From positions 21,399 through 85,398 of IMG/VR virus record IMGVR_UViG_3300035034_000924: DNA of 64,000 nucleotides. One strand, given 5' to 3'. The notes beneath the pieces were generated by a model. It searched no databases, was not told the origin of the DNA, and was given only the letters and a program-made list of their open reading frames with translations. Position numbers and translations under genes: made by a program. Each line of letters begins with the position of its first letter. Position 1 is the stretch's first letter. The DNA is from a virus. Shown piece after piece: positions 4,456 to 63,278 of this stretch.

Positions 4456-4469
4456 TGCAAACGTTTGCA
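4456..4469. repeat. Dispersed palindrome, perfect copy
   Basis: TGCAAACGTTTGCA, intergenic. Confidence 0.9.
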
Positions 4470-4488
4470 TTAACACGAGGATTTTGTA

Positions 4489-5484
4489 ATGACCATCTTA
4501 GCCGCCGAAGTTAAATTCTATAAGTCAGCCGAAGTGTCTGACGCAATCACCAATGGCGGGCTAATGTCTGCCATACAGTCAGTAAGTAACGTATCGGAAA
4601 ACGTCTTCCCTAGCGTACCTCTTGCTGAGCGGACTGCGGGATCGACCAAGTACCGAAAGCTGTTCGCTAAAATTGCAAGCGTCAGTAACGAGACGCTGCA
4701 GAACTCCAAGATCTATCTTACGCAGCCTAGCCCCGGCGATGATGTTGTCACGATCTTTGCTGCAACCCAGACGGATGTACAGGATGACATTACGGGATCT
4801 GAAGACCACTTCGGTTCTGGCAGTCTCAATGCTTCTGTACTTGCTGGAGTAACCAGCATCGACGTTCTGGTAGAAGATGATTCACTGGATCGTATATTCC
4901 GTATCGGGGAGACCATACGCATATCTGACCAAGCGACGGTCGGTGGTGCGGGCAACGAAGAGTACAGAGAACTCACAGGCGTAAGTTACGTCGGTGATGT
5001 TGCCAGTTTGTCTTTCGCATCCGGCCTAGCCAACCCATACGATAGCAGTGACTCATATGTCAGCTCAGGTGTAGACGCAGGCAATATCGTAGGTAGCTTC
5101 GACGGTTTCGTTGTTACCTCGTCTGCAGGCGCTTACGATGACTCTGGTTCTCCTGTAGCGGTAGATTCCATCGCGGGCATCGAAGACACGATCACCCTGA
5201 CGTTTACCTCCGCTACGGCATTCACTGCAGTCGGTGCGAACGCTGGCGCTCTGGGGTCGGGTACATTAGGTTCTGACTTCTCCCCTAACAACGCAGACTT
5301 TGGCGAACCATACTTTACGCTTCTGTCTGCAGGTTTCTCGGGTACATTTGCCGCGTCGGATACTATTGTATTCAACACCCACCCAGCTTCGTTCGGTATA
5401 TGGTACAAGCGTACGGTTCCTTCAGGGGCTGCTGCGTTAAGCGGTAATACAGTCCGTACCATGGTATATGGCGAGAATGTCTAA
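4489..5484 (+). CDS. Virion tail-tip/baseplate structural protein
   Basis: 331 aa, Gly/Ser/Thr beta-rich; NGG-x-M...NVFP-x-V...ER-x-AG...YRK N-terminal pattern of phage tail proteins; GAGG RBS. Confidence 0.6.
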   Translation: MTILAAEVKFYKSAEVSDAITNGGLMSAIQSVSNVSENVFPSVPLAERTAGSTKYRKLFAKIASVSNETLQNSKIYLTQPSPGDDVVTIFAATQTDVQDDITGSEDHFGSGSLNASVLAGVTSIDVLVEDDSLDRIFRIGETIRISDQATVGGAGNEEYRELTGVSYVGDVASLSFASGLANPYDSSDSYVSSGVDAGNIVGSFDGFVVTSSAGAYDDSGSPVAVDSIAGIEDTITLTFTSATAFTAVGANAGALGSGTLGSDFSPNNADFGEPYFTLLSAGFSGTFAASDTIVFNTHPASFGIWYKRTVPSGAAALSGNTVRTMVYGENV

Positions 5485-5486
5485 AC

Positions 5487-6476
5487 GTGGTCACGAAGAG
5501 AGTAGACGCAAGCCAGAGAGTACCGTTCGACTCTGGGTCCCGTGAGCCGATAGCAGAAGACAAGCTTGCATTAGAGCTTGTCCCTAGCTTCGACGATCCG
5601 GGTGCGTCTAGGCCTCCTTGGCAGACCGTGCGGCTGTTCCCTGCATTGAACGGGGTGAATGTAGAAGCTTCCAGAGGTGATGTCGAATACACCGGAACTT
5701 CCGGTCAGCTAAGCCGATCAGAGTTCGTGGAGTTTAACGGCAGCCGGACTTCTTCTGTTCAGTACCCCATCGACGGCGGGAGCATACAGCCAGTAGTAAA
5801 GTTCGCCTACGATCTGGACGGTAACGAGATAGGTGCGAATTTCCTTAGCTTCGTCGCATACAACAACCAAAAAGAGATTGTCTGTAATAGGGAGTTTGTC
5901 GGGGCAGTACAGATAGACTACGTGTCGTCTTACAAGATCTACCGATACCAGCCAGAAGACGGCGTCATCTACAGCCCCACGGGCCAACTACTGTTCGCTA
6001 ACTACGGGACGATACTCGCCTTCAAGGATCAGCAATTTGCTACGCTGGAGATACAGCCACCTACCTTGAACTTCGATCAGTCGTCTTTCAAGAAAGAGCT
6101 GTATCGCGTGGTCTCCGTGATTCAAGTCAACGAAAACGGGCCATGGGAAAAGATAGAAGATTTCGATACAGGATCTTCATGGCCTGACGGGAATGCTCCT
6201 GCAGATGGGGATAGCCTTTTTGAGTACGAGCGGGTGCATGAGATAGGCTACGTGTCCACTTTCCACAGGGGATTCGTAAACTACGAAACAAGGTCTATTG
6301 CTTTCGAGCAAGGGCCTGCTAGTGGCGACTACGTACCCGACACGCTGGAAGCACAATTCAAGTCACCTTCTGATTTCCAATCGGACTTCCTCGACGCTTA
6401 CAACCAGATCAGTATCGACAGTGCTATAGCGGGCATTAGAGATAGGTGGGGATCTGGCATAACCATAACGGAATAG
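5487..6476 (+). CDS. Putative tail structural protein
   Basis: 329-aa ORF tightly packed in the tail operon. Confidence 0.55.
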   Translation: MVTKRVDASQRVPFDSGSREPIAEDKLALELVPSFDDPGASRPPWQTVRLFPALNGVNVEASRGDVEYTGTSGQLSRSEFVEFNGSRTSSVQYPIDGGSIQPVVKFAYDLDGNEIGANFLSFVAYNNQKEIVCNREFVGAVQIDYVSSYKIYRYQPEDGVIYSPTGQLLFANYGTILAFKDQQFATLEIQPPTLNFDQSSFKKELYRVVSVIQVNENGPWEKIEDFDTGSSWPDGNAPADGDSLFEYERVHEIGYVSTFHRGFVNYETRSIAFEQGPASGDYVPDTLEAQFKSPSDFQSDFLDAYNQISIDSAIAGIRDRWGSGITITE

Positions 6477-6480
6477 TGTC

Positions 6481-8305: not shown

Positions 8306-10042
8306 ATGGCGATAGTACAACAAGAACACATAGCCGTACTGCCGTACTCTGTTCATAGGGAGTTTATAGCGCCGTACGATATCAAGGCAGCCAAAGCGTT
8401 CTCTTTCGACATTGTGTATGCGTTCCTAGCTTATGACGTTGTACAGAAAGAGCACGTTGCCCTGTTCAAAAACGATTCATCTGAATTCAGCCACGACAGC
8501 GTTTGGTCACTGCAGGACAGCGTGTCTTTCGAGCATGTCATAGAATACAACCTGCTAGAAGCAGACCTTATCAAGACAGAGCACGTTGCAACATATCGAA
8601 TGGATACTTCCGCGTTCGAGCACGTATCGACTTGGAGCATTTTGCAAACGCTTGCAAAAGAGCACGTTAGTGAATGGTCTCTAGAAAACTTTGAAAAAAT
8701 CCGACAGGAGCACGAGGCTGTTTACGGGATGGCGGGCTCTGCGTTCGAACACGTATCGGCTTGGGATCTACTGGGTTCCTTATCTAAAGAGCATGTATCG
8801 GTTTACTCGCTAACGTCTCCGTTGGCAGTAGAGTTTGTTGCAGTGTACGAAATGAAGGATCACGATGTAATCAGCAGGGAGCATGGCGCGGTATACAACA
8901 TCTATGATCCGATAGTGATCGACGTCACCGGACAGCCTGTGATTACTTTGGGGGACGGCACAATAGTCGATATCATAGATGCTGACGTGTCTAAGTCAGA
9001 AGACCAGATACACTGGACTTGCACTATTACGCTAGGTGACGTATCAGACTACCAGCTGTTCGAGCAAGATACTCCGTTCGAGTTAGATCTGTTTGGCGAG
9101 AAGTACGATTTCATCGTTGACTCTAAAGAGCTGAACCGAGGCGAAGGTACAGTTAATCGCAACGCTCTAGTAAACGGGGTCTCACCTACTGCCTTAGCTG
9201 ACTCGCCCAGAGCCAGCCAGAGAGAGTACACGTTCGCTACCAGCAAGACTTTGATTACTATGATGCAGGAAATCCTGTCAGGGGTTGGTATTACCCTTAA
9301 TCAGGTAGGTACGATCACTGATGGTCTTATTCCGTTCGAGAGGGCAGGGGTACGTGCTGCTAGTCCGTTGGAAGTTGTATTCAACATGGCAACCAAAGCG
9401 GGCCTAGTGATCTACGCACCCAAGCAAGACCCCGGTGTCCTTAATATCCGAAGGAAGTATCTGTACGATACGCACACGGGGTACACCGCAGGCAACACCT
9501 CAAGCTCAGTGACCGACATGGATAACATCATGCGTTTGGTCGAGCAATTCGTGCCTTCTCGCCTAGTTGATCGGGTCAGGATCTTCGATAGCCAAGGCAC
9601 GTTCAAGGACAAGATAACATTCGAACTGGACACTGATAACGCAGGCAATAGATTAGCCAAGCAGGGCACTGCAAGGATCTACCCGTCCCCAGCAAGAGAG
9701 GCGCTAGACAACCCCGTACTGGACAACGTGAATAAACCAGAAATAAAGCTGGAGTTTTTGGGTCAAGAGACGGAGACTATCGAGGGCGAAGAGCTGACGT
9801 TTAACGCAGGCATAGCCTCGGTAGACTTCCCTATAAACAGTATGGTGTCCATAGATTGGCAAGGAGTCTCGCTGGTAGGGGTGACGTATGAGCCCGGTTC
9901 GTCTACAATCCGAGGAACGGACACAAGCACTAACGGCGGGTACGCGGTAGCCATAGTGAGCTACACAACCATTTCAAGAAAGTACAGGGTAATAGCGAAC
10001 ACGGAAGAGGCCATAGACCTGCTTCTGAGCTATCAGGATTAG
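8306..10042 (+). CDS. Tail-tip hub-like protein with N-terminal EH-x3-[YW] repeats
   Basis: 578 aa; about 14 tandem 14-17-aa repeats (e.g. AFEHVSTWSIL, AKEHVSEWSLE) followed by a hub-like beta region. Confidence 0.55.
   Translation: MAIVQQEHIAVLPYSVHREFIAPYDIKAAKAFSFDIVYAFLAYDVVQKEHVALFKNDSSEFSHDSVWSLQDSVSFEHVIEYNLLEADLIKTEHVATYRMDTSAFEHVSTWSILQTLAKEHVSEWSLENFEKIRQEHEAVYGMAGSAFEHVSAWDLLGSLSKEHVSVYSLTSPLAVEFVAVYEMKDHDVISREHGAVYNIYDPIVIDVTGQPVITLGDGTIVDIIDADVSKSEDQIHWTCTITLGDVSDYQLFEQDTPFELDLFGEKYDFIVDSKELNRGEGTVNRNALVNGVSPTALADSPRASQREYTFATSKTLITMMQEILSGVGITLNQVGTITDGLIPFERAGVRAASPLEVVFNMATKAGLVIYAPKQDPGVLNIRRKYLYDTHTGYTAGNTSSSVTDMDNIMRLVEQFVPSRLVDRVRIFDSQGTFKDKITFELDTDNAGNRLAKQGTARIYPSPAREALDNPVLDNVNKPEIKLEFLGQETETIEGEELTFNAGIASVDFPINSMVSIDWQGVSLVGVTYEPGSSTIRGTDTSTNGGYAVAIVSYTTISRKYRVIANTEEAIDLLLSYQD
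8643..8656. repeat. Dispersed palindrome, 1 mismatch
   Basis: TGCAAACGCTTGCA, in CDS (LQTLA). Confidence 0.85.
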
Positions 10043-10593: not shown

Positions 10594-10595
10594 AC

Positions 10596-11117: not shown

Positions 11118-11126
11118 GTAAAGACG

Positions 11127-11813
11127 ATGCCCATTTCTGATTTCTACAGAGGAAACACCAGAGACTTCACATTCAGTTTTTTGCAGCCGAACCCTTTGTA
11201 CACGGGCGAACCTCCTGCAGTAACTGTAACAGCTGTTAGCGAAGCCGTCTTCGATGACGTCACCTATCCGGTAGACATATCATCGTCCGGTGTAATAACA
11301 GAAAACTGGACACTAACTTTTGACAGTGCCACCGAATACGAAATCGTAGGCGATACAGCAGGCTTGGTAGGCCGGGGCAACATCAGCGTCGATGCGCACC
11401 CAGTAAACCCTGCCAAGGGGACTCCGTATTTCACACTACCCAAAGGCGGCTGGGACACGAAGAAGAAATTCGCTTCAGGAGACGCACTGGTATTCAGCAC
11501 CATAGTGCGGAATGTACCGGAAGACATAACAGATCTGGTCGTCACTTTGACTTTTATTGATGAAGACGATGGAACCGTAACTTTGCAAACGTCTGCAACG
11601 GCAGGGGACAGCGCGGGCGATAGCCCAGCGAACGGGATTATGAACCTACGTCTCAACTCAGGCGAATCAGCTCTGTTGGTTAAAGAGTCTTACAAATATG
11701 GATTCGAGCGAAGAACTCCTGACGGTGCGGATGAAGCCCTCGATATTGTCAGGACTATCGAAGAGGGGAAGGTCAAGATACTGACTCCTGCGAAAGCTGT
11801 AACAGCCAGCTAA
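11127..11813 (+). CDS. Baseplate upper protein (BppU-like)
   Basis: YRGNTRDFTFSF...DIT...NGIMNLRL...YKYGFE...RTIEEGKVKI pattern; the insert resembles the C-terminal part of 4489..5484 (TLTF-x-SAT...P-x-NP...PYFTL). Confidence 0.5.
   Translation: MPISDFYRGNTRDFTFSFLQPNPLYTGEPPAVTVTAVSEAVFDDVTYPVDISSSGVITENWTLTFDSATEYEIVGDTAGLVGRGNISVDAHPVNPAKGTPYFTLPKGGWDTKKKFASGDALVFSTIVRNVPEDITDLVVTLTFIDEDDGTVTLQTSATAGDSAGDSPANGIMNLRLNSGESALLVKESYKYGFERRTPDGADEALDIVRTIEEGKVKILTPAKAVTAS
11584..11597. repeat. Dispersed palindrome, 1 mismatch
   Basis: TGCAAACGTCTGCA, in CDS (LQTSA). Confidence 0.85.
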
Positions 11814-17492: not shown

Positions 17493-17810
17493 ATGATGGG
17501 AATGTGGCCAGTTGAGCAAGCGATTTGGGTAATTGCAAACGTTTGCATAGGTGTATCGTACACTTTGGTGTTGGCCCACTACAGCATCCACACTGTACCT
17601 ATCTTACTAAACCAAGGTTTCGTATATTTTTGCGGGATGGGACACTTCGGTATGGTCATATGGATGGCGCTACTACCACATAACTACCTCGTGTTTCTGA
17701 CGGTTTGTATCTTGGACAGTATGACTGCATTAGTCAGTGTAGCTTCTGCGTGGTACGCTTGGCGAAGACGAGAACGAAAAGGGGAAGCCAATGCTGTGCA
17801 TAGAAATTAA
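17493..17810 (+). CDS. Three-TM protein resembling the ethylene-receptor (ETR1-type) ligand-binding domain
   Basis: ANVCIGVSY / GFVYFCGMGHF / DSMTALVSVASA align by eye to ETR1 SDFFIAIAY / AFIVLCGATHL / KVLTAVVSCATA. Confidence 0.65.
   Translation: MMGMWPVEQAIWVIANVCIGVSYTLVLAHYSIHTVPILLNQGFVYFCGMGHFGMVIWMALLPHNYLVFLTVCILDSMTALVSVASAWYAWRRRERKGEANAVHRN
17534..17547. repeat. Dispersed palindrome, perfect copy
   Basis: TGCAAACGTTTGCA, in CDS (ANVC). Confidence 0.9.
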
Positions 17811-20726: not shown

Positions 20727-20740
20727 TGCAAAAGTTTGCA
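20727..20740. repeat. Dispersed palindrome, 1 mismatch
   Basis: TGCAAAAGTTTGCA, intergenic. Confidence 0.85.
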
Positions 20741-25161: not shown

Positions 25162-26019
25162 ATGGCCAAATTACCTGTACCAAAGTCCCGTAAAGTGGGT
25201 CACCAGACGGCAGAAGTGGGTCACGAGACGACCGGGGGTGGGTCACCAAACGACCCCATAAAACATACTCATAATAACAAGCGGATAGTAACAAGCAGAA
25301 GGTTGCGTCCCGAAGAGGAACGCGACTCTGTGAAACTTGAGAATATCGAGGCTACACTTACTAGACGTTCGGAAGAACGGATCAGCAAAAAGCTGAAGTC
25401 TGCGAAAGGCAAAAAGTTCCCCTCCTACGATGAAGCACTTACGATGTGGCTAGTGGCTTACCGGGATGCTACTGATTGCATACCTACCACAGGCGTGACT
25501 ACCAAAGAGTGGGGTATGTTCCGCCAAGTTTCTATTAAACGACCTGACTTTGACGTCCGAGAATTCTTTGCAGACATTTGCAATAACTGGGACTACATCG
25601 GCACCTCTACGCTGAAGTTTGTGGATGACTACCCAGAGCTGCCCTCGCTGTCTTTGGTATTCCGTATGTCGAATTACTTTGCAGAGGCAGTCGCAAGCTT
25701 ACGCGGGTTCAGCGGCAAGCAGGAGACGTTCAAGAAGCGCATGATTGAAGCCAGTACTAAGCAGCGGGTTAAGGAAAACGCCCCCACAGCCACCTCTGAG
25801 CGTCACAGAGGACTCTTTCTTGACACGGAGCTGTCTAATCTACAAGATACGAACTTCGCTCTAGGTGATTACTTACTAGCAGCGAAGAAGGACCACGCCG
25901 ACATATACATCTGGGCCGGAATACAAACAGGATGGATTCGCACCATGGAAACTGTCCCCGCTTCCGAACTGGATAAAGACAGGCAACAGATTATAGATTT
26001 CATTGAGGCAATAAAGTGA
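25162..26019 (+). CDS. Replication-associated protein carrying putative origin iterons
   Basis: 285 aa, in frame directly after the O-like gene (TAG-ATG); three 21-22-bp repeats at its 5' end. Confidence 0.55.
   Translation: MAKLPVPKSRKVGHQTAEVGHETTGGGSPNDPIKHTHNNKRIVTSRRLRPEEERDSVKLENIEATLTRRSEERISKKLKSAKGKKFPSYDEALTMWLVAYRDATDCIPTTGVTTKEWGMFRQVSIKRPDFDVREFFADICNNWDYIGTSTLKFVDDYPELPSLSLVFRMSNYFAEAVASLRGFSGKQETFKKRMIEASTKQRVKENAPTATSERHRGLFLDTELSNLQDTNFALGDYLLAAKKDHADIYIWAGIQTGWIRTMETVPASELDKDRQQIIDFIEAIK
25195..25257. repeat. Three tandem iteron-like repeats GTGGGTCAC(C/G)A(G/A)ACG, putative replication origin
   Basis: Copies start at 25195, 25216 and 25238 (21-22 bp period), within the initiator region. 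Confidence 0.65.
25569..25582. repeat. Dispersed palindrome, 2 mismatches
   Basis: TGCAGACATTTGCA, in CDS (ADIC). Confidence 0.6.
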
Positions 26020-39543: not shown

Positions 39544-40119
39544 ATGCCACGAGCGAGAAGACAAAGAACAGAACCAGAGATGGAAGTTTCCGTGCTAGGA
39601 GTAGACCCGTCATCCAACGGTACAGGTATTGCTTTCCCCTCCGGTGTTACCGCTAGCTTGCCGCTTAACACGAACACGAAAAACGTGGCTAAAGGAAGTA
39701 ACCGGATTGTTAAAATAATGAACTGGTTAGACGGCTACGACTACTCCGACATTACACACGTCTGTATAGAAGGGTACGCGTTCGGCATGAAAGCACAGGC
39801 GGGTAACTACGATAGAGCGGAGCTGGTAGGTACGATGAAATTGTTCTTCCTGAAGAAAGGCAAGCCACTTATTATCTGCCCCCCCAGCACCCTGAAGAAG
39901 TTCGTCACAGGCAAAGGCAACGCAGATAAAGAAGAGATGGTTGACGCGGTATTCCAGAGGTGGGGTTACGATATACCCTGCCACGATGAGGCTGACGCCT
40001 TTGGACTTTCTATGTTTGGTGAGGCATGCTTAGGTTCCAAGGGTAGTAGCGAGCTTTTCGATAAAGCAGAGTACGTAGCTATAACAAGGCCCTTGCAAAC
40101 ATTTGCATTTTTTGACTGA
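39544..40119 (+). CDS. ruvC: RuvC-like Holliday junction resolvase
   Basis: LGVDPS...TG, IEG, ELVG, P-x-TLKKFVTGKGNADKEEM, DEADA. Confidence 0.88.
   Translation: MPRARRQRTEPEMEVSVLGVDPSSNGTGIAFPSGVTASLPLNTNTKNVAKGSNRIVKIMNWLDGYDYSDITHVCIEGYAFGMKAQAGNYDRAELVGTMKLFFLKKGKPLIICPPSTLKKFVTGKGNADKEEMVDAVFQRWGYDIPCHDEADAFGLSMFGEACLGSKGSSELFDKAEYVAITRPLQTFAFFD
40094..40107. repeat. Dispersed palindrome, 1 mismatch
   Basis: TGCAAACATTTGCA, at the RuvC 3' end (LQTFA). Confidence 0.85.
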
Positions 40120-40125
40120 GTAACG

Positions 40126-40154
40126 TTGACAGTTATGTTTATAAGGGCAATAAT
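40126..40154 (+). promoter_or_regulatory. Sigma70-like promoter for the histone-like gene
   Basis: TTGACA-N17-AATAAT; AAGGAG RBS downstream. Confidence 0.5.
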
Positions 40155-40220
40155 TGCCATCCCCAAATCGGGAATCGAAAAAAATCCAATATTGGAATCG
40201 GTGCACAAAGGAGCATACGT

Positions 40221-41444
40221 ATGAAAGCAGGTGATAGAGTAAAGTTCTTGAAGTTCCAATCGGCAGACGACCTGCCCGAAAACTCGGAGCTTCTGGTTGA
40301 AGGCGAAAAGTACACGGTCAGCAGCATTACTAAAGGTAAAGGCGAAGACCTAGACCTCTACCATGTGATTGCCGAAGATGAGAACGGCGACACCTACGAA
40401 GTCGAAGTTTTCGAAGACGAAGTAGAAGCGGTAGCCAAAGGCAAGGCTGCAGCGAAATCGAAGGCCGCGCCAAAAGCAAAAGCAAAAGCCGCACCCAAGG
40501 CAAAGGCCGCCCCTAAGTCTAAGGCCAAAGCGAAAGCCAAAGCCGAGACGGAAGAAGAAGAAACCGAAGAAGAAGAAACCGAAGACGAAGAAACCCAAAC
40601 CGAGCATGTCGAGCCGGAACTGAAAGGCATCACTGTACTTAGTGATGAACAGCAGGACGCAGACATCGCCAGTGCCGTAGCCGACACCGATGACCTTGTC
40701 GGGCTTACCATTGAATACGCCGAAGATGCAGCACAGTCTCAGTGGGCGTTGGGCGGGTTGCTTTACTACTGCCAAGCAGAGAAAGTTCACCGAGCGTACG
40801 ATGAAGGCCAGTACGATAAAGTCGGTGGATGGCGCGAGTTCTGCGAAGAAGTCCTTTCGGTTAACTACCGCACCGCGATGGACCTTGTTAACGTCTACTC
40901 TCGTTACTGTGCAGTTGGCTGGGGTATTGAAGAATACAAGCGCACCAGTGCGACGGCAGCAGTAGAGCTTCAAAGAATGCTTCCAGATCTGGATAGCGAT
41001 GCTGCAGATGATCTGCTTCATGCAGCAGAAGAACAGAGCTTTGCCGAGTTCAAGGAAACTCTTAAAGCCACGAAGGCGACAGGCGACGGTGGAACCAAAC
41101 CGATCACTGCAGTCAACATGATGCGGTTCGCTTTCAAGGCGAAAGAATCCGAAGGCAAGAAGATCGCCAACATCATCGAGCTGGCCAAAGAGCACACTGG
41201 AATCAGTAACACCGATGAGCTGTTTGCTACCATCTTCCTTGAGTGGGCGAACAACGAGCTGGACCGCGATGCTCTGAGCAAGATGACCCGCAGTAAGGCT
41301 AAGGCGTCCAACACCAAAGCCGCCGCGAAAGCTAAGGCAGCACCGAAGGCCAAAGCTAAAGCAGCACCGAAAGCTAAAGCGAACGCTGCACCGAAGGCGA
41401 AAGCTAAGGCCACTCCAAAGGCCAAAGCCAAAGCTAAGAAGTAG
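40221..41444 (+). CDS. Histone H1-like Lys/Ala/Pro-repeat protein with globular domains
   Basis: Two KAKAAP repeat tracts, an EEETE acidic tract, SH3-like N-terminus; own promoter and terminator. Confidence 0.75.
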   Translation: MKAGDRVKFLKFQSADDLPENSELLVEGEKYTVSSITKGKGEDLDLYHVIAEDENGDTYEVEVFEDEVEAVAKGKAAAKSKAAPKAKAKAAPKAKAAPKSKAKAKAKAETEEEETEEEETEDEETQTEHVEPELKGITVLSDEQQDADIASAVADTDDLVGLTIEYAEDAAQSQWALGGLLYYCQAEKVHRAYDEGQYDKVGGWREFCEEVLSVNYRTAMDLVNVYSRYCAVGWGIEEYKRTSATAAVELQRMLPDLDSDAADDLLHAAEEQSFAEFKETLKATKATGDGGTKPITAVNMMRFAFKAKESEGKKIANIIELAKEHTGISNTDELFATIFLEWANNELDRDALSKMTRSKAKASNTKAAAKAKAAPKAKAKAAPKAKANAAPKAKAKATPKAKAKAKK

Positions 41445-41553: not shown

Positions 41554-42252
41554 ATGGCAGCACGTAGACGCAGACGGCAGACGGCAGAACCAGCAACACA
41601 GGCACCCACAGAGCCGCTGCTACCGACTATCGACGTACGGATAGATGACATAGTCCCGTACGAATTCAACCCCAGAGACAATGCTAAGGCCGTACAGGGC
41701 GTAGCCAATTCACTAGCCGAGTTCGGATGGATGGTTCCTTGTGTTATCGACGGGGACAACGTCTTAGTTACTGGCCACACACGGATAGAGGCAGCCAAGG
41801 TTCTAGGGCTGGAGTACGCTCCCTGCTACCGAGTAGAGCATCTCACTCCTGAACAAATCAAAGCCTATAGATTGGTGGACAATAAGCTAAACGAATTAGC
41901 GGATTGGAATCAGACATTGCTGTCCGAAGAGATGGCCTCGCTGGGCAGCCTCATGGACTTCACCGATTTTGGCTGGACACAAGAAGCCATTGACTGTTTG
42001 CAGGAAGAAGTAGCGGACGATTGTTTGTCAGGCGGAATAGTGGATGATATGACGCGGGGCGAAGCAGCATCCAGAACGAACAACGGCCAAGGACCACAAA
42101 GGAGCAGAGTGGTTATCGGTGAGTTCGTGTTCTTCGTACCTATCGAGGTATACACCCTATGGTCGAGAGACCTTAAGGAAGGTAATGACTTCGTGGATCG
42201 AGAGATTATAAACGACCTGAAAGCACGTCTCGGTATAACGGAGTACGAGTAA
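41554..42252 (+). CDS. ParB/Srx N-terminal domain protein
   Basis: PYEFNPR...SLAEFGW-x-x-P-x-VID...GHTR-x-x-AA...AYRLVDNKL-x-ELADW. Confidence 0.88.
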   Translation: MAARRRRRQTAEPATQAPTEPLLPTIDVRIDDIVPYEFNPRDNAKAVQGVANSLAEFGWMVPCVIDGDNVLVTGHTRIEAAKVLGLEYAPCYRVEHLTPEQIKAYRLVDNKLNELADWNQTLLSEEMASLGSLMDFTDFGWTQEAIDCLQEEVADDCLSGGIVDDMTRGEAASRTNNGQGPQRSRVVIGEFVFFVPIEVYTLWSRDLKEGNDFVDREIINDLKARLGITEYE

Positions 42253-43733
42253 TGATAGAGGAAGTTGCAGCGGATCAGATCTACCCTGACGAGACCAACC
42301 CTCGAAAGAGTGACCCTACACGGATGCACCTACTGCAGCTTTCCATATCCAAGCTGGGGTTTATCCAACCGATATACTGTGCAAAGAACGGCATGATTCT
42401 TTCGGGCCACCAACGGTACAAAACCGGGAAGGCCCTAGGCTATGAAGCATTCCCTGTTGAGTATGTTGACCTGACCGAGAAAGATATCAAAGGCATAAAC
42501 GTGATGTTCAACAGGGCGACCAACGACTTCACTGCTTTTGAGACCGGAGCAAGCTCTGCAGAAAAACTCGACATAGCTTCCCTCATGTCTATGGCAGACG
42601 AGTTCCCTGATGCCGAGTACGACTACGCATACAACTGCGAAGAGACAGAGATTACGGGTATGGGTAAAGGCATTGGCGATAGACACAATCGTAAGTCACT
42701 ACTGACAGCCTCGTCTATGCGCCGTAAGGGCATCAAGATACCTATCGTAGTATCAGAGTCAGGCCAGATCGTAAACGGCGTACACAGGCTGTTTGAGGCC
42801 CGACACGAGGGCATAGAAACATGGCCAGTGATAACGATACCGGATGAGACGGCAGACATGGCGCTCAACATGCTGAACTACCTTTCCATGGACTATGAAG
42901 TGGACGGGGACTTCGCAAAGATGCTCAGGTATTCTGCCTACCGCAGACCACAGAACAACAGAGGTAATCTGCCCAAAGCTTTCCGGTTCTGGGCTAACGG
43001 TAACAAGACAGTGTCCGATAAGGATGCGTACTCAGCAGAGTACTGGAGAGAGTTCAGGGAAATGCACGGCAGCTTTGTCTGCGATTTTGGTGCTGGGTTA
43101 TGCAAGGCCAAGAGTTTCCTAGAGGACAAAGGCATCGAGTGTTTAGAGTTCGAGCCATTCAGGATACGCCCAGACTCTGAGAGGAGATCACCGGACCCTG
43201 ACTACAGCAGGCACATGGCCAGAGAATTCTTGCAAACGTTTGCAGACACCGACAAAACACTGGGGACTATCTTCCTCGCTAGCGTGATGAACTCCATACC
43301 CTTCGCAAGAGACAGGCAGTGCGTACTCGCTATCGTGCATGCTATGTCGGGGGTACAGACCATGGTTTGCGGGACATGCCGAGACTACAGTGACTTCGAG
43401 TACGAGTACGGAGGGGTGCGTAACGCCGCCTACTTCAAGTTCGATAGCGAACCGGGGGTAAGGCTGGGCGACACCATTAGCAATCCCAAAATACAGAAGT
43501 TCCACACTCAGGCAGAGTTCAGGGCAATAGCTAAGTTCTTCTGGGGCGAAGTAGAGACATGGTCAGGGGGCAATGTATTCTATTGGAGATGTACGGCACC
43601 TAAGCGGATCAACAAGAAAGTGCTAACAGAGGCCCTACTGTTTGAGTTTGACGATCTTCCGTTCAACGACGGATCAACTATGGGATTAGGTGACGAAGCC
43701 ATAGAGGCATTCACCAAGAGAGGCGCACTATGA
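42252..43733 (+). CDS. Tandem ParB-like domains fused to a SAM-dependent methyltransferase-like domain
   Basis: NPR...LGFIQPI...GHQR and PIVV...NGVHRL ParB motifs; C-terminal CDFGAG...FEPF...SVMNS Rossmann MTase-like motifs. Confidence 0.75.
   Translation: MIEEVAADQIYPDETNPRKSDPTRMHLLQLSISKLGFIQPIYCAKNGMILSGHQRYKTGKALGYEAFPVEYVDLTEKDIKGINVMFNRATNDFTAFETGASSAEKLDIASLMSMADEFPDAEYDYAYNCEETEITGMGKGIGDRHNRKSLLTASSMRRKGIKIPIVVSESGQIVNGVHRLFEARHEGIETWPVITIPDETADMALNMLNYLSMDYEVDGDFAKMLRYSAYRRPQNNRGNLPKAFRFWANGNKTVSDKDAYSAEYWREFREMHGSFVCDFGAGLCKAKSFLEDKGIECLEFEPFRIRPDSERRSPDPDYSRHMAREFLQTFADTDKTLGTIFLASVMNSIPFARDRQCVLAIVHAMSGVQTMVCGTCRDYSDFEYEYGGVRNAAYFKFDSEPGVRLGDTISNPKIQKFHTQAEFRAIAKFFWGEVETWSGGNVFYWRCTAPKRINKKVLTEALLFEFDDLPFNDGSTMGLGDEAIEAFTKRGAL
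43231..43244. repeat. Dispersed palindrome, perfect copy
   Basis: TGCAAACGTTTGCA, in CDS (LQTFA). Confidence 0.9.
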
Positions 43734-45318: not shown

Positions 45319-48158
45319 TGCCCAGCATGGACTCGCCTAAGATACAGCGCCTTATTGCAAACTTTCGCAAAATGGCAGAGGTGTCGGACAACCCTTCATT
45401 TATCGAGAACTATATCTTCGCTATCGAGCAGATGGTGGAGCACGGCAACAGTGCCTACTTCGATTTCGTTAAGCAACTCCGTATTGTGCCCGTTGACATA
45501 GAGACCTTCATTGACAGTGAAGAGTTCATGGGCGCTACCGACCTTATGCTATGGCCAGAGGTTCGCAAGGCCATCATAGAGCTGAACAAAGATTGGTTTC
45601 GCGGGGTTAGCAATGGTGCCAAGACAGAGTTCCTAGGTAAAGGTGCGACGGGTTGCGTCGATAAAGACACGGAGTTTCTAACACCTACAGGTTGGAAATT
45701 TATATCCGAATGGGATAACGATCTTGTAGGCCAGTATAACGAGGACGGTACTGTATATTTCGTGAAGCCCGAAGAGTACGTCAAGATGGAGTACGACAGC
45801 TTCATAAAATTCAAGACCTCCACCTTCGATCAGATGCTCACTGCTGGGCATAGGGTTATATACAAGAGCAGGAAGAGTGGGGAGCTACAGGAAAAGCCCG
45901 CAGAAGAAATAGCTGTGATGCACAACGGGTCTAGGCACGGATGGAAGTCAGGTACTTTCATAGGCCACTACCGTACTGGCGGGGAAGGTATAGATCTAAC
46001 CGATGACGAGATTCGCTTGATGGTTGCGGTAATGGCTGACGGCTCTTTCTACAAAAGAGCAGGGCATAGGCCGCAGTACTGTGTTCACCATGTCAAAAAA
46101 GAAAATAAAAAAATACGATTGCGTATGCTTCTAGATAAGTGCGGGATTAAGTACAACGAATACAAAAGAAGTAGTGGGTATTCTGACATTGCGTTCTTAG
46201 CACCAGAACGAAATAAGACCTACGAAGGTTGGTGGTCGGCAAGCAACTCTCAATTGCAAACGATTGCAGATGAATGCTTAAGGTGGGACGGAACAGAAGT
46301 AAGAGGCGAGTTTTATACCAGAGACAAGAATACATCTGATTTCATACAGCATTGCTTTACCGCTACAGATAGACGCGCCACTATAGCCCCGTTCGTTAGG
46401 GGTGACGGTGCAGTTGACTACGTTGTTCATGTTGTTAAATCCCAGAGTTGGGGGTTAGCTAGTAGTAGCAAAAGCAATTTTGCGATGGTGCCTTCAGAGG
46501 ATGGGTATTGTTATTGCTTCCGTATGCCTTCGTCTATGTGGGTGTCTAGGAGAAATGGCAAAGTGGTCGTCACAGGCAATACTGGCAAATCTGAGATAGC
46601 AAAGGTCACAGCAGCCTATAGCCTGTACTTGGCAGGCTGTATGAAGAAGCCGCAGGCATACTGGGGGATACCAAGCGCAACCCAACTAGTGCTGCCGATC
46701 TTTGCCGCCAAACCAAAGGTAACTAAGAACGTACTCTATGAACCACTGCGGGCATACATATCGACCATGCCATGGTTCGTGAAGAATATGCCTTTTGATA
46801 AGTATGTCGAGTCGGAGATGATATTTGAGACTCACAATATCCGGGTCACTCCAGTAGGGGCTGACGTTGACTCGATACTTGGTGAAGCCGTATTCGCTGC
46901 GATGATTGACGAGATCAACTTCATGCAAGTGGTAGAGAACTCACGTAAGGCAGAAGTTAAGGGTGGCAGATCCGCAGTCTACGACCAAGCGTCAGACATA
47001 TACCGTAAGGTCACCCGTCGTAAGTCTGGCCGTTTCACAAGACCCGGCCCTAACGTAGGTGTTATCACCACCATGTCTTCTACTCTGTACCCCGGAGAGT
47101 TTACCGAGAAGCTAGAAAAGAGGATCGTCAACGAGGGCCTTAAGCATATCTATGTGTACAATAAGGCACAGTACGAAGTGCGGCCTCAGGATAACTACTC
47201 AGGCGAGAAGTTCTACGTATGTGTGCATGATGATGCGGCGGGCACGATAGACCTGAAGATGGAAGGCGAAGACCTACCTAAGACAGCCACGATCTACGAA
47301 GTCCCTATCGAACTGCACACCCAGTTTGCTGAAGACAAGGAAGGTTCGACGCGAGACATTATAGGAAGGTCGGTAAGGCCACTGTCCCCATTCTTTACGC
47401 GGGTCAGCAAGATACGTGACGCATTCGAACTTGGACAGATGGTAGAGATACCCACCATAGTAGAAAGAATGAACGTCAAGCTATCAGAGGACGGCATGCC
47501 TAGGGTAGTAGCTGGACATTACTGTAAAGACCCTTCGCGTCCACGCTACGTACACATAGACTTGTCACACATATCAGACAGGTGCGGGATAGGCATGGTC
47601 AGGTACGATGGTATGTTCGAAGTATCTCGTGACGGGGGCAGATCCGAACTATTACCTTGCGCCACCGTAGAGCTGGCTATCAGCATACAACCAGATGAGA
47701 ACACCGGAATAGATCTGGCAGAAGTAAGGAACTGGGTCAGTGCGCTAAAGACTGTCTACGGCTACCCGATAAAGATCGTCAGCTACGATGGCTGGAATTC
47801 ATTGGAGTCGAGGCAGCAGTTGAAGAACTCGGGATTCAAAAGCAAGCTGATTTCCGTAGACAAAACCACGACACCCTACAAGCAGTTTCGTGACGCCATG
47901 TACGATGACCGTATAGCACTATGCGAATCAGAGGTATTGTACGATGAGCTTCGTGAGCTGGAGTACGACAAGAAAAAAGACAAGGTAGACCACCCAGCAA
48001 CAGGCACGAAGGATTGTGCTGACGGGGTAGTAGGCGCGTACACCACTATGATCGAGCGGGCTAACAGCTGGATTGACGTCGATAGCGGGGGCAAGAGAGC
48101 CAGAGTATCCTCGGATAGATTCAGACAACAACGTGTAGACTTAGGTGAACGACGGTGA
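45318..48158 (+). CDS. terL: Terminase large subunit with intein
   Basis: Walker A GATG/TGKS split by intein, Walker B AMIDE, RNase-H-like HIDLS...D, SYDGW, KVDHP...KD-x-ADG. Confidence 0.88.
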   Translation: MPSMDSPKIQRLIANFRKMAEVSDNPSFIENYIFAIEQMVEHGNSAYFDFVKQLRIVPVDIETFIDSEEFMGATDLMLWPEVRKAIIELNKDWFRGVSNGAKTEFLGKGATGCVDKDTEFLTPTGWKFISEWDNDLVGQYNEDGTVYFVKPEEYVKMEYDSFIKFKTSTFDQMLTAGHRVIYKSRKSGELQEKPAEEIAVMHNGSRHGWKSGTFIGHYRTGGEGIDLTDDEIRLMVAVMADGSFYKRAGHRPQYCVHHVKKENKKIRLRMLLDKCGIKYNEYKRSSGYSDIAFLAPERNKTYEGWWSASNSQLQTIADECLRWDGTEVRGEFYTRDKNTSDFIQHCFTATDRRATIAPFVRGDGAVDYVVHVVKSQSWGLASSSKSNFAMVPSEDGYCYCFRMPSSMWVSRRNGKVVVTGNTGKSEIAKVTAAYSLYLAGCMKKPQAYWGIPSATQLVLPIFAAKPKVTKNVLYEPLRAYISTMPWFVKNMPFDKYVESEMIFETHNIRVTPVGADVDSILGEAVFAAMIDEINFMQVVENSRKAEVKGGRSAVYDQASDIYRKVTRRKSGRFTRPGPNVGVITTMSSTLYPGEFTEKLEKRIVNEGLKHIYVYNKAQYEVRPQDNYSGEKFYVCVHDDAAGTIDLKMEGEDLPKTATIYEVPIELHTQFAEDKEGSTRDIIGRSVRPLSPFFTRVSKIRDAFELGQMVEIPTIVERMNVKLSEDGMPRVVAGHYCKDPSRPRYVHIDLSHISDRCGIGMVRYDGMFEVSRDGGRSELLPCATVELAISIQPDENTGIDLAEVRNWVSALKTVYGYPIKIVSYDGWNSLESRQQLKNSGFKSKLISVDKTTTPYKQFRDAMYDDRIALCESEVLYDELRELEYDKKKDKVDHPATGTKDCADGVVGAYTTMIERANSWIDVDSGGKRARVSSDRFRQQRVDLGERR
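45654..46580 (+). mobile_element. Intein (309 aa) with LAGLIDADG-type endonuclease in TerL Walker A
   Basis: Starts CVDKDTEFLTPTGWK, block B LTAGH, LMVAVMADGS and CLRWDG blocks, ends VVVTGN followed by Thr. Confidence 0.9.
46255..46268. repeat. Dispersed palindrome, 1 mismatch
   Basis: TGCAAACGATTGCA, inside the TerL intein (LQTIA). Confidence 0.85.
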
Positions 48159-49422: not shown

Positions 49423-49436
49423 TGCAAACGCTTGCA
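49423..49436. repeat. Dispersed palindrome, 1 mismatch
   Basis: TGCAAACGCTTGCA, intergenic. Confidence 0.85.
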
Positions 49437-52426: not shown

Positions 52427-52429
52427 CCC

Positions 52430-54402: not shown

Positions 54403-55266
54403 ATGTCTGACTTTTATAACGAGATAATGGCTGAGCTAGGTAACCCAGATGGCAAGCTACCCCAGAACCTGTTAGCACAAGTACAAGAAAAAATGCGACT
54501 GCTATTCGGTCAGCCGGAGATTAGTGCCAGCATCTTCCCTTACCCATGCGTTATACCGGAATACCGAGAATTCACCAAAGGTCCGTGGCAGCTACGCCAC
54601 GTCCCAGACTTCCCACATAAATCCTACTTCAGTGGCCTGATGAGGATGGGTATGGAACCACCAGTGCTAATGAAGAACGGCGCTCCATGGATGGGCGTCA
54701 CTGCCAGAGAATGCGAGAGCCACCTGTTTCATGTATGGGCGGCAGAGGAATCATACAACACGGCAGTCGTGGGCCTAGGCATGGGGTACTATCCGTACCA
54801 GCTAGTGCACAATGGAGTCGGCGGGGAAATCACCGTATTCGAGATAGACCAGAACGTGACAGACCTGTTCTATGAGTCCACCAAAGGGAATGCTCGATGG
54901 GACGAGGTGCATGAGTGTCTCAAGGTAGAGCACCACAACCTGCTAACTACGCCATACACGAAGGCGCAGTACGACCACTGCTATGTAGATATCTGGGAGA
55001 CACTCGCAGAGACATCGGCGGAAGAGGACACTGCAAACGTTTGCAAGAACCTTGCTGCCGGGACATATTCGTTTTGGACTCAGGAGGTCTGCTACATCAG
55101 CTGGTTAGCCGATCACAATAAGGACATGGAGCCACACACACTGGAGGAATACTTCGCTACCATACTGCCCAGCAGGCCCAGTGCATTCGGTTTGCCTCAC
55201 GACATGGAAGTGGACGATTACATCGCCTTATGCAAGGAAGCCGCTGTCCGGGCTTTCCTAGATTAA
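54403..55266 (+). CDS. SAM-dependent methyltransferase / spermidine-synthase-like fold protein
   Basis: WM...E, VVGLGMGY, TVFEID, YD-x-x-x-VDIW Rossmann motifs. Confidence 0.7.
   Translation: MSDFYNEIMAELGNPDGKLPQNLLAQVQEKMRLLFGQPEISASIFPYPCVIPEYREFTKGPWQLRHVPDFPHKSYFSGLMRMGMEPPVLMKNGAPWMGVTARECESHLFHVWAAEESYNTAVVGLGMGYYPYQLVHNGVGGEITVFEIDQNVTDLFYESTKGNARWDEVHECLKVEHHNLLTTPYTKAQYDHCYVDIWETLAETSAEEDTANVCKNLAAGTYSFWTQEVCYISWLADHNKDMEPHTLEEYFATILPSRPSAFGLPHDMEVDDYIALCKEAAVRAFLD
55032..55045. repeat. Dispersed palindrome, perfect copy
   Basis: TGCAAACGTTTGCA, in CDS (ANVC). Confidence 0.9.
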
Positions 55267-57467: not shown

Positions 57468-57812
57468 ATGCGAGTAATGACAGAAGACGAATTGGCTGAC
57501 ATTTTGGCGGCTAGACCACAGGACCTAGTTGCTGCCCTCGGGGGCGTGAGCCTACGGGACACGATCAAGGTAGTACTGGCTTTGCAATTGTTTGCAAAAG
57601 CGTCGGAGAACCTCGATCTGGAGACGGAAGCGGCTGAGTTTTTGGAGGCATGCCGAGAGGCAGACAAGAGCAAGATGCTGAGCCTACCAGACGAAATGGA
57701 CAGGCAGAATTGCGAGGTGGCACTGTACGTCGTAAACCAGAACATAGAGTTTCTGGGGATGTCGCCTAAGGAAATCAAACAGAAATGGAAGGGGGGCGGG
57801 GATGGCTACTAG
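57468..57812 (+). CDS. Hypothetical protein
   Basis: 114 aa, AAGGA RBS. Confidence 0.55.
   Translation: MRVMTEDELADILAARPQDLVAALGGVSLRDTIKVVLALQLFAKASENLDLETEAAEFLEACREADKSKMLSLPDEMDRQNCEVALYVVNQNIEFLGMSPKEIKQKWKGGGDGY
57583..57596. repeat. Dispersed palindrome, 2 mismatches
   Basis: TGCAATTGTTTGCA, in CDS (LQLFA). Confidence 0.65.
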
Positions 57813-60978: not shown

Positions 60979-60992
60979 TGCAAACGTTTGCA
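60979..60992. repeat. Dispersed palindrome, perfect copy
   Basis: TGCAAACGTTTGCA, intergenic. Confidence 0.9.
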
Positions 60993-61005
60993 AAGAGGCA
61001 GCCGC

Positions 61006-62069: not shown

Positions 62070-62072
62070 CCC

Positions 62073-62273
62073 ATGACATACCTACTAGTACTATCGACCA
62101 CACTACTATGTCTAGCACTGGGCTACGTGATGTACCACGACACCAAACTGAATTTGCAAATGCTTGCAGATGAACCATGGTACGTGCGCATATTCTGGGC
62201 AGTACTTCTCTCTTCCCCCGTGTTCGCTATTGCGTACGGCATCGTGTCACTGGTTCGTCTCCTTCAGAGATAA
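62073..62273 (+). CDS. Small two-TM membrane protein
   Basis: GGAG RBS; hydrophobic. Confidence 0.45.
   Translation: MTYLLVLSTTLLCLALGYVMYHDTKLNLQMLADEPWYVRIFWAVLLSSPVFAIAYGIVSLVRLLQR
62155..62168. repeat. Dispersed palindrome, 2 mismatches
   Basis: TGCAAATGCTTGCA, in CDS (LQMLA). Confidence 0.6.
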
Positions 62274-62843
62274 TTCGGCGGGCCAATACCTCCATACCAT
62301 ATATAAGCAAGTGAGTAACTCTGTAAAGCTTATAAAGGTAATACCCCTACCCAGATGTCTATAAGGGCAGCCGTACGCCCCATAGTACGTGCCTTGCGTG
62401 GCTAATGTGGATTTTTCGGCGGGCCAAAGACATAAGAGAACATAATAAGAATACAATGAGAAAGTGTATATAGGTAAAGTCTATAAGGGTGATGTATTGA
62501 TGGATCTTTCTACTGATATGTAAATCTCTCTTCACACATACTGTAACCTGCTTTGTAAAGTCCCCGTTTGCGGCAAAAATATTTCTGACATGCAAATTTT
62601 TTTCTGAGCATTATAAACTTTCGTGCCGTGCCGTGGTTCCTGCGGTGACCTCTGCATTACTGTCTACTGATCGTGGCCCGCGTCGTGTACTGGACTGGCG
62701 TGTATCGTGTTGCGACCATTACTGCATTGTGATCGTGATTGTGGACGTGCTTGCGACCATTACTGCAACATGGATGTATTTGTGCCCGCACTTGCGACCA
62801 TATATCTGCGGGATTACATTATTGTTTTCACAGGAGACAACCT

Positions 62844-63047
62844 ATGGCCGATACGATGGAAGAAACAGGCATCACCAAGGCGCTCGATGCTGCACAGCAC
62901 GAGTTGGAATACGCAACGAAAGATGACGTGCTTACTGCCTACAAAACTATGAAAGCACGTACTGCAGATCTGTCCTTATCTTTTAGCGTTCGGGAAGCTG
63001 CATTTAGAAACCTGCTAATGCTGCGGGGAATGCTGAAGGAATATTAG
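62844..63047 (+). CDS. Hypothetical protein
   Basis: AGGAG RBS before ATG 62844. Confidence 0.5.
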   Translation: MADTMEETGITKALDAAQHELEYATKDDVLTAYKTMKARTADLSLSFSVREAAFRNLLMLRGMLKEY

Positions 63048-63264
63048 GCCCACCCTATTACCCCGGCTGACATCCTGTATAACAGTATCGTGTAACGTGG
63101 GCTGACTGCCCCCCCTTCTTCCCGGCTGGTGTTTACATTAACAGTAACGTGTATCGTGGCGTGGCCTGACGTGGTCCTGCATTGTGGCCCGCAACCTGAC
63201 GTGTCGTGAACGTGGGAAGTGTACTGGCGTGACGTGGCGGGTGATGTGATCGTGGAAAGGTTTC

Positions 63265-63278
63265 TGCAAACGTTTGTA
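63265..63278. repeat. Dispersed palindrome, 1 mismatch
   Basis: TGCAAACGTTTGTA, intergenic. Confidence 0.8.

Follow-up and report, generated by a model that had tools for sequence, protein, structure and literature searches.

Evenly dispersed palindromes in a lytic phage lineage and a phage-encoded candidate for their reader

Why should a phage genome carry the same short palindrome every few kilobases, inside genes as well as between them? The question is raised by a 64-kb stretch of viral DNA (the window), which comprises bases 21399–85398 of an 85,398-bp contig (IMG/VR record IMGVR_UViG_3300035034_000924, here G000; CheckV completeness 89%). A first-pass annotation of the window, made from the sequence alone, had listed 20 copies of a 14-bp palindrome and proposed that a dimeric protein decorates the genome at regular intervals. 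We recovered all 20 copies at the listed positions (nine perfect, eight with one mismatch and three with two), and 15 of the 19 intervals between them again measured 2.5–4.2 kb when recomputed from the coordinates. A further two-mismatch copy at 45356 (TGCAAACTTTCGCA) was missing from that list, so that the window holds 21 copies of TGCAAACGTTTGCA at up to two mismatches: nine perfect, eight with one mismatch and four with two (Table 1). In 100 dinucleotide shuffles of the window the mean was 0.13 matches and the maximum two, and none of the 100 reached 21. The array runs on through the remaining 21 kb of the contig, which as a whole has 29 sites at this threshold, 14 of them perfect. We read this array as a dispersed-operator network in a lytic phage lineage. 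To the explanation that a two-fold symmetric DNA-binding protein of the phage docks at these palindromes, we give a probability of about one half; the most likely such protein is P0002, a histone-H1-like protein encoded in the window.

The sites are evenly placed. The gaps in G000 have a mean of 2976 bp and a coefficient of variation (CV) of 0.47, compared with 0.97 at random, and the contig was more even than all 20,000 of the random placements with which it was compared, a check that the first-pass annotation had itself proposed. No two neighbouring sites are closer than 899 bp, whereas the null median for the smallest gap is 72. The evenness also holds when random placement preserves the observed proportions of intergenic and coding sites (CV 0.46 versus 0.99 ± 0.19). 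No long-range phase was detected, as the Rayleigh power at the best period (3125 bp) did not exceed that of gap-shuffled controls (P = 0.44). The sites are therefore evenly dispersed and do not form a periodic lattice. Of the earlier description as "roughly 3-kb-periodic", the non-random and even spacing is borne out, while strict periodicity is not.

To place the array in its lineage, we compared G000 with related genomes. Among cultured phages, the closest to G000 belong to Samunavirus and infect Pseudomonas aeruginosa (SM1, PaMx31 and others; ~93 kb); they have their gene order in common with G000 and show ~50% identity in a ParB_N protein of 493 amino acids (aa). Aeromonas phage HJ05 is the next relative, with 37% identity in this protein. 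An exact-word scan of IMG/VR yielded G001–G004, distant kin in which a few proteins (capsid, portal, replication/recombination) have 23–44% identity to those of G000 by tblastn; G003 and G004 overlap and derive from the same or nearly the same phage. G006–G010 are among the relatives reached through RecA.

The palindrome word is the most repeated 10-mer and 12-mer in each of G000–G004 and SM1, and in all of these it consists of two T(G/C)(C/A)AA half-sites separated by 4 bp. Allowing one mismatch, we counted 53 copies in G001 (102 kb), 20 in G002 (98 kb), 21 in G003 (46 kb) and 24 in G004 (66 kb). SM1 carries 30 copies of TGCAA-N4-TTGCA (TGCAARCGYTTGCA), HJ05 has 16 copies of TGCAAC-YR-GTTGCA with the centres CTGG, CCGG and CCAG, and G010 has 13 copies of TGCAAC-NN-GTTGCA in 42 kb. 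The densest array is that of G009 (102 kb), where 63 copies of TCCAA-N4-TTGGA amount to one per 1.6 kb (CV 0.63) and the centres are mostly non-palindromic, of the TCAA/TTGA type. Eight copies of TGAAA-N4-TTTCA were found in G006 (75 kb), and 18 copies of a 15-bp form, TTGCA-N5-TGCAA, in G008 (90 kb, complete). The half-sites of G008 lie one base further apart than those of the other lineages, which implies a changed dimer geometry. In most of 26 further loci encoding P0002-family proteins, the commonest inverted repeat was of the TGCAA, TGAAA or TTGAA type, and the spelling TGCAAT-CA-ATTGCA was met in loci L238–L262. The same architecture with drifting spelling thus extends across phages of Pseudomonas, Aeromonas and lake bacteria. 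Conversely, 75 RecA-related loci of unrelated ~150-kb phages contained neither a P0002-family protein nor such repeats, a comparison that is confounded by phylogeny and carries little weight. A literature search on Samunavirus, PaMx31 and SM1, on evenly spaced dispersed palindromes in phage genomes and on DUF3102 found no description of the array.

Across lineages the half-sites stay fixed while the centre varies. In SM1, the centres are ACGC (11), GCGT (10) and GCGC (7) and never ACGT, and the asymmetric centre is used in both orientations about equally (11 and 10). Fixed half-sites, a variable centre and the two orientations in SM1 fit recognition of duplex DNA by a protein better than an RNA hairpin. 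The centre AACGTT, dominant in G000–G004, occurs in none of the 30 SM1 sites, all but two of which use one of the three centres above. AACGTT is a restriction site known from Pseudomonas, and avoidance of restriction is one possible explanation for its lack in SM1.

Even spacing is not limited to G000. Gaps were significantly even in nine genomes or contigs (G000, G001, G002, G003, G004, SM1, G009, G008 and G006; CV 0.46–0.65, P from <0.0002 to 0.025), with sites ~3 kb apart in G000 and 1.6–9 kb apart in the relatives. The individual sites are far less stable. In the block from the polymerase to a 946-aa protein, which is syntenic between G000 and SM1, the sites occupy different places in orthologous genes; the ParB_N-methyltransferase gene, for example, has its site around codon 327 in G000 and around codon 147 in SM1. 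Turnover of individual sites has thus left the spacing intact, the outcome that the first-pass annotation had asked of related phages. That evenness recurs in nine or more genomes or contigs suggests a function that is local in action yet needed chromosome-wide, with each site serving its own neighbourhood.

We next asked at which level the sites are constrained. On the contig, nine of the 29 sites are intergenic and 20 fall in putative coding sequences (CDSs), some of which are small open reading frames (ORFs) of doubtful status. The coding sites use frames 0, 1 and 2 in 4, 11 and 5 cases, giving the peptides CKRLQ/H, LQTFA and ANVC. When synonymous codons were shuffled within ORFs, sites at up to one mismatch fell from 25 to a mean of 10.5, which is about the number of intergenic sites; the coding copies are lost. 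The use of all three frames, reported previously for the window, thus extends to the contig and, together with the shuffles, agrees with the earlier view that the constraint acts on DNA rather than on protein. Over six contigs, sites were enriched between genes about 3.5-fold (67 of 177 versus 19.4 expected, or 59 of 156 versus ~16 without G003, which duplicates G004). Despite this enrichment, the majority of sites are still inside genes. Many SM1 sites begin 1–2 nt past a stop codon, as though they took the place of a spacer between genes.

Little is conserved around the sites. Beyond the 14 bp, only a symmetric outer T on the left and A on the right are conserved (G and C in SM1), and a comparison of flanks revealed no −35/−10 pair, ribosome site or T-run accompanying the sites. 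A sigma70-like promoter was near 5% of sites and 4% of random positions, so that the earlier statement that most sites are not at promoters holds. There was no excess of such promoters beside sites relative to random positions in G000, G001, SM1 and G009, and they were somewhat commoner next to sites in HJ05 (P = 0.0035) and G002 (P = 0.016). Two further candidates were rejected. A selfish mini-element does not agree with the lack of conservation past 14–18 bp. As for a sigma-54 promoter, the GC-to-GC distance should be 11, whereas by eye it is 10 in the site.

Which protein might read the sites? The strongest lead is positional and concerns the P0002 family. In all relatives, the recombination module ends with the gene of this family. 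A six-frame search found the family in 10 of 12 genomes, the two without it being contigs estimated to be 64% and 38% complete, and iterated profiles place it among the universal or nearly universal families of these 12 genomes, along with a 411-aa protein, a superfamily 2 (SF2) helicase, a 123-aa protein, RecA and an exonuclease. The site at 40094..40107, upstream of the P0002 gene, is the sole one whose position is conserved across relatives. Five of nine genomes (G000, G001, SM1, HJ05 and G009, the last with its own TCCAA word) have a perfect site within 400 bp upstream of the P0002-family gene, in each case at 56–144 bp, and G006 has a one-mismatch site at −133. Within the same distance upstream of other families, sites were found for P0005 in 0 of 12 cases, for the MerR-like protein in 1 of 8, for ParB_N proteins in 0 of 9, for the 411-aa protein in 1 of 12 and for RecA in 0 of 6. 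We then pooled the genomes with 24 further loci, counted those that have at least three perfect sites, and took other ORFs of at least 100 aa for comparison. A site lay 30–200 bp upstream of 10 of 15 P0002-family genes and of 50 of 750 other ORFs (odds ratio 28; Fisher P = 9 × 10−9, which overstates independence, as some of the counted loci are close kin, namely L238/L239 and L261/L262). In several genomes the interval from the site to the start of the P0002-family gene contains, as judged by eye, a putative −35 of the TTGACA type and a putative −10. The position of the site beside this presumed promoter suggests autoregulation.

P0002 begins with a small domain and ends in a Lys/Ala/Pro tail. 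Between the two are a basic tract rich in the same three residues, an acidic tract and a central domain that is entirely helical; the Lys/Ala/Pro repeats are evident directly in the P0002 sequence. An exhaustive HMMER search of 1.84 billion sequences identified 1179 family representatives at E ≤ 0.001, while a word-based protein search with the central domain returned no match. In the alignment, the family core shares G-G-L-L-Y and Y-R-K-A-M-Y-L-I...G-W-S-K-A-K-E-L. The N-terminal domain and the basic and acidic tracts surround this core in G000, SM1, HJ05, G006, G007 and G008 but not in G001 and G009. Two members depart from this layout: the HJ05 homologue (71796–73586, L136) has three tandem small N-terminal domains before the Lys/Ala/Pro tract, and in the G003 member (10211–11242 in original coordinates, L132) a winged-helix-like N-terminal part replaces the small domain and the basic tracts. 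The G003 gene is also on the strand opposite to the replication genes. Searches against Pfam gave P0002 weak sub-threshold matches only, with neither a ParB_N domain nor a match to DUF3102 (PF11300); two of 40 family members do match DUF3102 (best E-value of 7.4 × 10−6).

An AlphaFold model of the central 231 residues, built from a 40-sequence alignment, is all-helical (predicted local distance difference test, pLDDT, 89.4; predicted template modelling score, pTM, 0.71). Among the weak rows that Foldseek returned for it, ParB, Spo0J-parS, Noc, SopB-DNA, ParB-DBD-parS and KorB-DBD-operator chains come up repeatedly. A VIA-align comparison with 48,161 chains likewise listed the ParB DNA-binding domain (6s6h, Z 8.7, root-mean-square deviation, rmsd, 10.8), Spo0J (1vz0, Z 8.0, rmsd 3.1 over 105 residues), the KorB DNA-binding domain with operator (1r71, Z 7.4, rmsd 3.3 over 109 of 114 residues), KorB (8qa8, Z 6.7), VirB (Z 5.4), SopB (Z 5.1) and P1 ParB (Z 4.8), although Z below ~13 may, for helical models, reflect a mere common arrangement. 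BFVD returned SM1 gp050, which is the SM1 homologue of P0002, as well as DUF3102 proteins (E-values of 0.05–0.16) and ParB-like proteins. The ESM Atlas rows, all under 0.9, serve as leads only (DUF3102, "DUF1016/ParB HTH"). The recurrence of one superfamily, ParB/KorB, with near-complete coverage of the domain is suggestive, though not proof, of the fold of the central part of P0002.

From these observations we infer how the array might work. Dimers of P0002 would bind the palindromes through the central, putatively ParB/KorB-like helix-turn-helix (HTH) domain, and the histone-H1-like, Lys/Ala/Pro-rich tails would bind flanking DNA without sequence preference. Through the site just upstream of its own putative promoter, P0002 may regulate itself. 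The remaining sites would float along the genome, settling in the gaps between genes where these allow it and elsewhere within genes, whatever the frame. If each serves a neighbourhood of a few kb and the whole chromosome must be served, redundant close neighbours would be lost and large gaps filled. A local nucleoprotein coat, bridge or slide zone could nucleate from each site, over the whole chromosome, and such a coat may organise, silence or shield phage DNA in lytic infection by compaction, by the timing of transcription or by protection from nucleases and defence systems. The proposal of the first-pass annotation that a dimeric protein decorates the phage genome is our best reading too, with even rather than strictly periodic placement. 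Its list of candidate readers included the H1-like protein at 40221, which we favour, along with a ParB pair and an HTH protein that are less well supported.

Several observations weigh against P0002 as the reader. G007 encodes a P0002-family protein but has no clear motif in the 40 kb examined. The H1-like tails are absent in G001, G003 and G009, which carry the densest arrays. The putative recognition helix does not simply track the spelling of the half-sites, as L245 (TGAAA) and HJ05 (TGCAA) share YRKAMYLIKIY. In the fold comparisons, Foldseek found no PDB match to the central model at E ≤ 0.001 (E-values ≥ 1.2), the top VIA-align row was the unrelated Raf1 (Z 9.1), above every ParB-type row in a range that already calls for caution, and the P0002-family profile gave only chance-level rows, and no solved relative, against PDB sequences. 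The positional link is incomplete as well: beyond the kinship among the counted loci, 5 of the 15 have no site 30–200 bp upstream, four of nine genomes (G002, G006, G007 and G008) have no perfect site upstream of the P0002-family gene, and G003, which is outside the 15-locus count, has none within 200 bp upstream. Moreover, a site upstream of a gene shows regulation of that gene through the array; it does not show binding by the gene product. Lastly, evenness is not significant in HJ05 (CV 0.79, P = 0.24) or G010 (CV 0.69, P = 0.13).

Could another protein bind the palindromes? A different phage-encoded dimer is an unlikely reader, whether P0004, a ParB_N clamp (41554, 42252), the 123-aa protein (36637–37008) or a small unrecognised protein. 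P0004 has a MerR_1/HTH_17 match, a long C-terminal helix and a site in the 3' end of its own gene, but it was not found in G001, G003/G004 and G009, three of the site-richest lineages, which speaks against the earlier suggestion that this HTH protein is the reader. Proteins of the ParB_N type occur in all eight non-fragment relatives examined, and ParB-fold clamps are described to load at palindromes and slide ~1.5 kb (PMC11790492). Nevertheless, no ParB_N gene in nine genomes has a site within 400 bp upstream and no HTH is visible by eye in the alignment of P0001 and its relatives, so the ParB proteins at 41554 and 42252, also named previously, are disfavoured. P0005 and the 411-aa protein are universal among relatives; P0005, however, lacks both upstream sites (0 of 12) and a Pfam match. 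A host protein such as a LacI/PurR-type repressor, which the replicating phage would titrate or recruit, is improbable. The likeness to LacI/PurR operators that had been noted earlier is real for G000: GCAAACGTTTGC equals what we take to be the core of the enterobacterial PurR box, and the inner 12 bp of the G000 word presumably match this core including the central CG. In addition, the exact G000 word is common to the distant G001, G002 and G003/G004, which have only a few core proteins at 23–44% identity, whereas the closer SM1 is spelled differently, so that spelling behaves as if it followed something other than phage descent. This pattern keeps a host factor alive at low odds. Against it, no candidate for a LacI-type HTH (PF00356) is encoded in the six frames of G000, and the central CG, kept in G000–G004 and SM1, is not kept in HJ05 (CTGG/CCAG in 9 of 16 sites) or G009 (mostly TCAA/TTGA type). 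The PurR box has C...G at the outer position, unlike the invariant outer T...A of the sites. Furthermore, the link of one site to the P0002-family gene holds across spellings, and titration needs no even spacing.

The sites might instead be acted on by enzymes, through site-specific modification by the ParB_N-methyltransferase/S-adenosylmethionine (SAM)-enzyme cluster, programmed nicking, or initiation of recombination or replication via the RecA/resolvase/exonuclease module. The gene neighbourhood offers some grounds for this, as a ParB_N-ParB_N-methyltransferase and a second SAM-methyltransferase-like gene lie 1–3 kb downstream of P0002 and the P0002 family itself adjoins the recombination module; fusions of ParB-fold and methyltransferase domains are also described as common in phages, with an unexplained role (PMC12704722). 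Yet tblastn and phmmer missed homologues of P0001, P0003 and the 267-aa methyltransferase in distant relatives with the same motif. Iterated profiles linked P0001 and P0003 to only one short single-domain ParB_N protein in the array carriers G001, G002, G008 and G009, and did not find the 267-aa methyltransferase in these four genomes. Nicking both strands of a palindrome would, besides, break the DNA. We regard an enzyme target as a poor prospect. Even less credible is an RNA element, that is, a hairpin of 5–6 bp with a tetraloop that marks processing or termination points between genes. The enrichment in short intergenic gaps and the SM1 sites that closely follow stop codons would suit it. 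However, an invariant stem with a variable loop is the reverse of a structural RNA, both orientations are equally used in SM1 though nearly all genes are on one strand, and there is neither a T-run nor flank conservation, with over half of the sites inside genes.

Binding of the palindromes by P0002 can be compared with known systems, among which KorB-OB is the closest mechanistic model and the Cluster O dyad repeat the closest described phenomenon. The IncP plasmid RK2 carries 12 OB sites. As there, one short palindrome is dispersed here on one replicon with some copies far from promoters, and the central model of P0002 appears to align with the KorB DNA-binding domain, at a Z (7.4) within the range for which the tool advises caution. 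KorB, a ParB-family protein of RK2, is described as acting on promoters up to 1.5 kb from OB sites and sliding up to 1.5 kb (PMC11790492). P0002 differs in having no ParB_N/CTPase domain, ParB_N being on a separate gene or genes; no ParA was found, a KorA-like partner is not known, the replicon is that of a seemingly virulent phage instead of a plasmid, and even spacing is not a described property of OB.

As described for Cluster O mycobacteriophages such as Corndog (PMC4351075), a 17-bp dyad repeat, TGTTCGG-NNN-CCGAACA, is present in more than 30 copies through the siphophage genome, with 14 of 34 in Corndog between genes and the rest in genes, and with invariant arms and a variable centre. 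The repeats are mostly not near promoters, and the phages lack integrase and parAB and gave no lysogens. A dimeric protein is predicted there to bind the repeats, without a function being assigned. Both systems therefore have tens of dyad copies genome-wide, intergenic as well as coding and mostly off promoters, in a non-temperate siphophage. They differ in word, phage lineage and host, and "spaced" does not appear in the text of that report. In the right half of Corndog we counted 26 dyad sites, apparently clustered, and the P0002-family profile had no match at E ≤ 1 in its 35–69.8 kb, the left half not having been searched. Cluster O, left unexplained, is the one earlier description that we found of a genome-wide single-palindrome array in non-temperate phages.

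Stoperators of Cluster A mycobacteriophages, read by L5 gp71-type repressors, are likewise many sites for one phage protein genome-wide, many of them in short intergenic gaps (PMC9283540). As described, stoperators lack symmetry and follow the direction of transcription, and the immunity repressor of temperate phages that reads them is monomeric (PMC9283540, PMC4351075). The present sites and their flanks are symmetric, and SM1 uses both orientations about equally. No tyrosine integrase (PF00589) was found in five genomes, G000 and four relatives, in a search that did not extend to serine integrases. A lytic life style is described for Samunavirus UF_RH6 (PMC10281142). The array also resembles ParB-parS and Noc-NBS in its 14–16 bp palindromes and in ParB-fold-family HTH readers, if P0002 is one. 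Noc sites are scattered over the whole chromosome. Canonical readers carry CTPase and HTH in one chain, which P0002 does not. In ParABS, ParB works with ParA at clustered origin-near sites, whereas here 29 sites are even over 85 kb and no ParA-type ATPase was found: PF13614 had no match at E ≤ 0.01 in G000, G001, G002, G008 (100% complete) and G009, other ParA models not having been tried. Because no ParA was found, the segregation role listed among the earlier interpretations is unlikely.

What sets the array apart is the enforced even spacing, a concrete candidate reader with a conserved site at its own gene, and members in culture. A broader picture can be offered only tentatively. A large group of virulent siphophages, some of them in culture, may tile its chromosome with evenly placed sites for a CTPase-less ParB/KorB-type binder with H1-like tails, whose local, chromatin-like coat would mark or shield "self" DNA or else compact or silence it, the spelling of the sites drifting together with the specificity of the reader. 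If so, the ParB/KorB theme would reach, through a stand-alone ParB-type domain with H1-like tails, into the chromatin-like organisation or the shielding of DNA in lytic phages. With SM1, PaMx31 and relatives on Pseudomonas and HJ05 on Aeromonas in culture, this can be tested at the bench.

Table 1. Palindrome sites and candidate reader genes in the window (positions count from its first base).
Feature	Position	Strand	Context
Perfect site	4456..4469		intergenic
1-mismatch site	8643..8656		within CDS 8306-10042
1-mismatch site	11584..11597		within CDS 11127-11813
Perfect site	17534..17547		41 nt into ORF 17493-17810
1-mismatch site	20727..20740		intergenic
Perfect site	24008..24021		gene boundary, just ahead of ORF 24017-24250
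2-mismatch site	25569..25582		within CDS 25162-26019
Perfect site	29013..29026		within DNA polymerase A gene 27900-31412
Perfect site	32513..32526		within primase gene 32063-33040
1-mismatch site	36573..36586		3' end of MerR-like HTH gene 36069-36623
1-mismatch site	40094..40107		last codons of RuvC-like gene, 127 bp upstream of P0002 start
Perfect site	43231..43244		within ParB_N-ParB_N-methyltransferase gene
2-mismatch site	45356..45369		within CDS 45318-48158
1-mismatch site	46255..46268		within CDS 45318-48158
1-mismatch site	49423..49436		intergenic or in doubtful 44-aa ORF
Perfect site	52430..52443		gene boundary, directly after stop of 51968-52426
Perfect site	55032..55045		within CDS 54403-55266
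2-mismatch site	57583..57596		outside + strand ORFs
Perfect site	60979..60992		between ORFs 60685-60966 and 60988-61269
2-mismatch site	62155..62168		in 66-aa ORF
1-mismatch site	63265..63278		intergenic
P0004, MerR/excisionase-type HTH protein; rival reader	36069..36623	+	absent in G001, G003/G004, G009
P0002 upstream region	40108..40220	+	TTGACA / -10-like pair between site and start codon, by eye
P0002, "H1-like", 407 aa; proposed reader	40221..41444	+	central helical domain, putatively ParB/KorB-DBD-like and DUF3102-related
P0001, 232 aa, stand-alone ParB_N-type protein adjoining P0002; putative partner	41554..42252	+	
P0003, 493 aa, ParB_N domain(s) and methyltransferase-like C-terminal part; lesser candidate	42252..43733	+	

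The window stretch is present in lake-water metagenomes of three studies, and no RNA dataset containing it was among the sequencing runs listed. Megablast of window positions 40000–48000 against cultured phages gave no match. Almost all ORFs of G000 are on a single strand and include genes for a family A DNA polymerase, a DnaB-like helicase, a primase, an SF2 helicase and RecA, as well as a RuvC-like resolvase, an AAA ATPase, two ParB_N-type proteins and a SAM-methyltransferase-like protein. The place of the ParB_N gene varies among relatives. A stand-alone ParB_N gene directly follows the P0002-family gene in G000, SM1, HJ05, G006 and G007; in G001 and G009 it directly precedes the homologue of a 262-aa protein (44530–45318), and in G002 it lies ~0.7 kb upstream of the homologue of the 946-aa protein (45318–48158). 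The latter had no Pfam match at E ≤ 0.01 and is conserved in SM1, HJ05 and G002.

Other observations concern single genes and sites. About 230 nt at the 3' end of the SF2 helicase ORF are shared with the P0004 ORF, which encodes an Arg-rich N-terminal tail. P0004 is conserved in HJ05, G002, G006, G007, G008, G010 and SM1, the annotation of the last covering just the final part of the protein (gp044); the single-sequence fold of P0004 was poor (pLDDT 65.8) and was not used for a fold search. Directly ahead of the perfect site at 52430 is a short, GC-rich, hairpin-like inverted repeat (52415–52429, GGGCT-TATAT-AGCCC). The AAA ATPase (603 aa, 20891–22702) is conserved in SM1, HJ05 and G002. Finally, the DNA polymerase A gene (27900–31412) has intein/Hint matches between its exonuclease and polymerase parts and encodes an N-terminal domain of the uracil-DNA glycosylase (UDG) superfamily, and the SM1 polymerase is also annotated with UDG.

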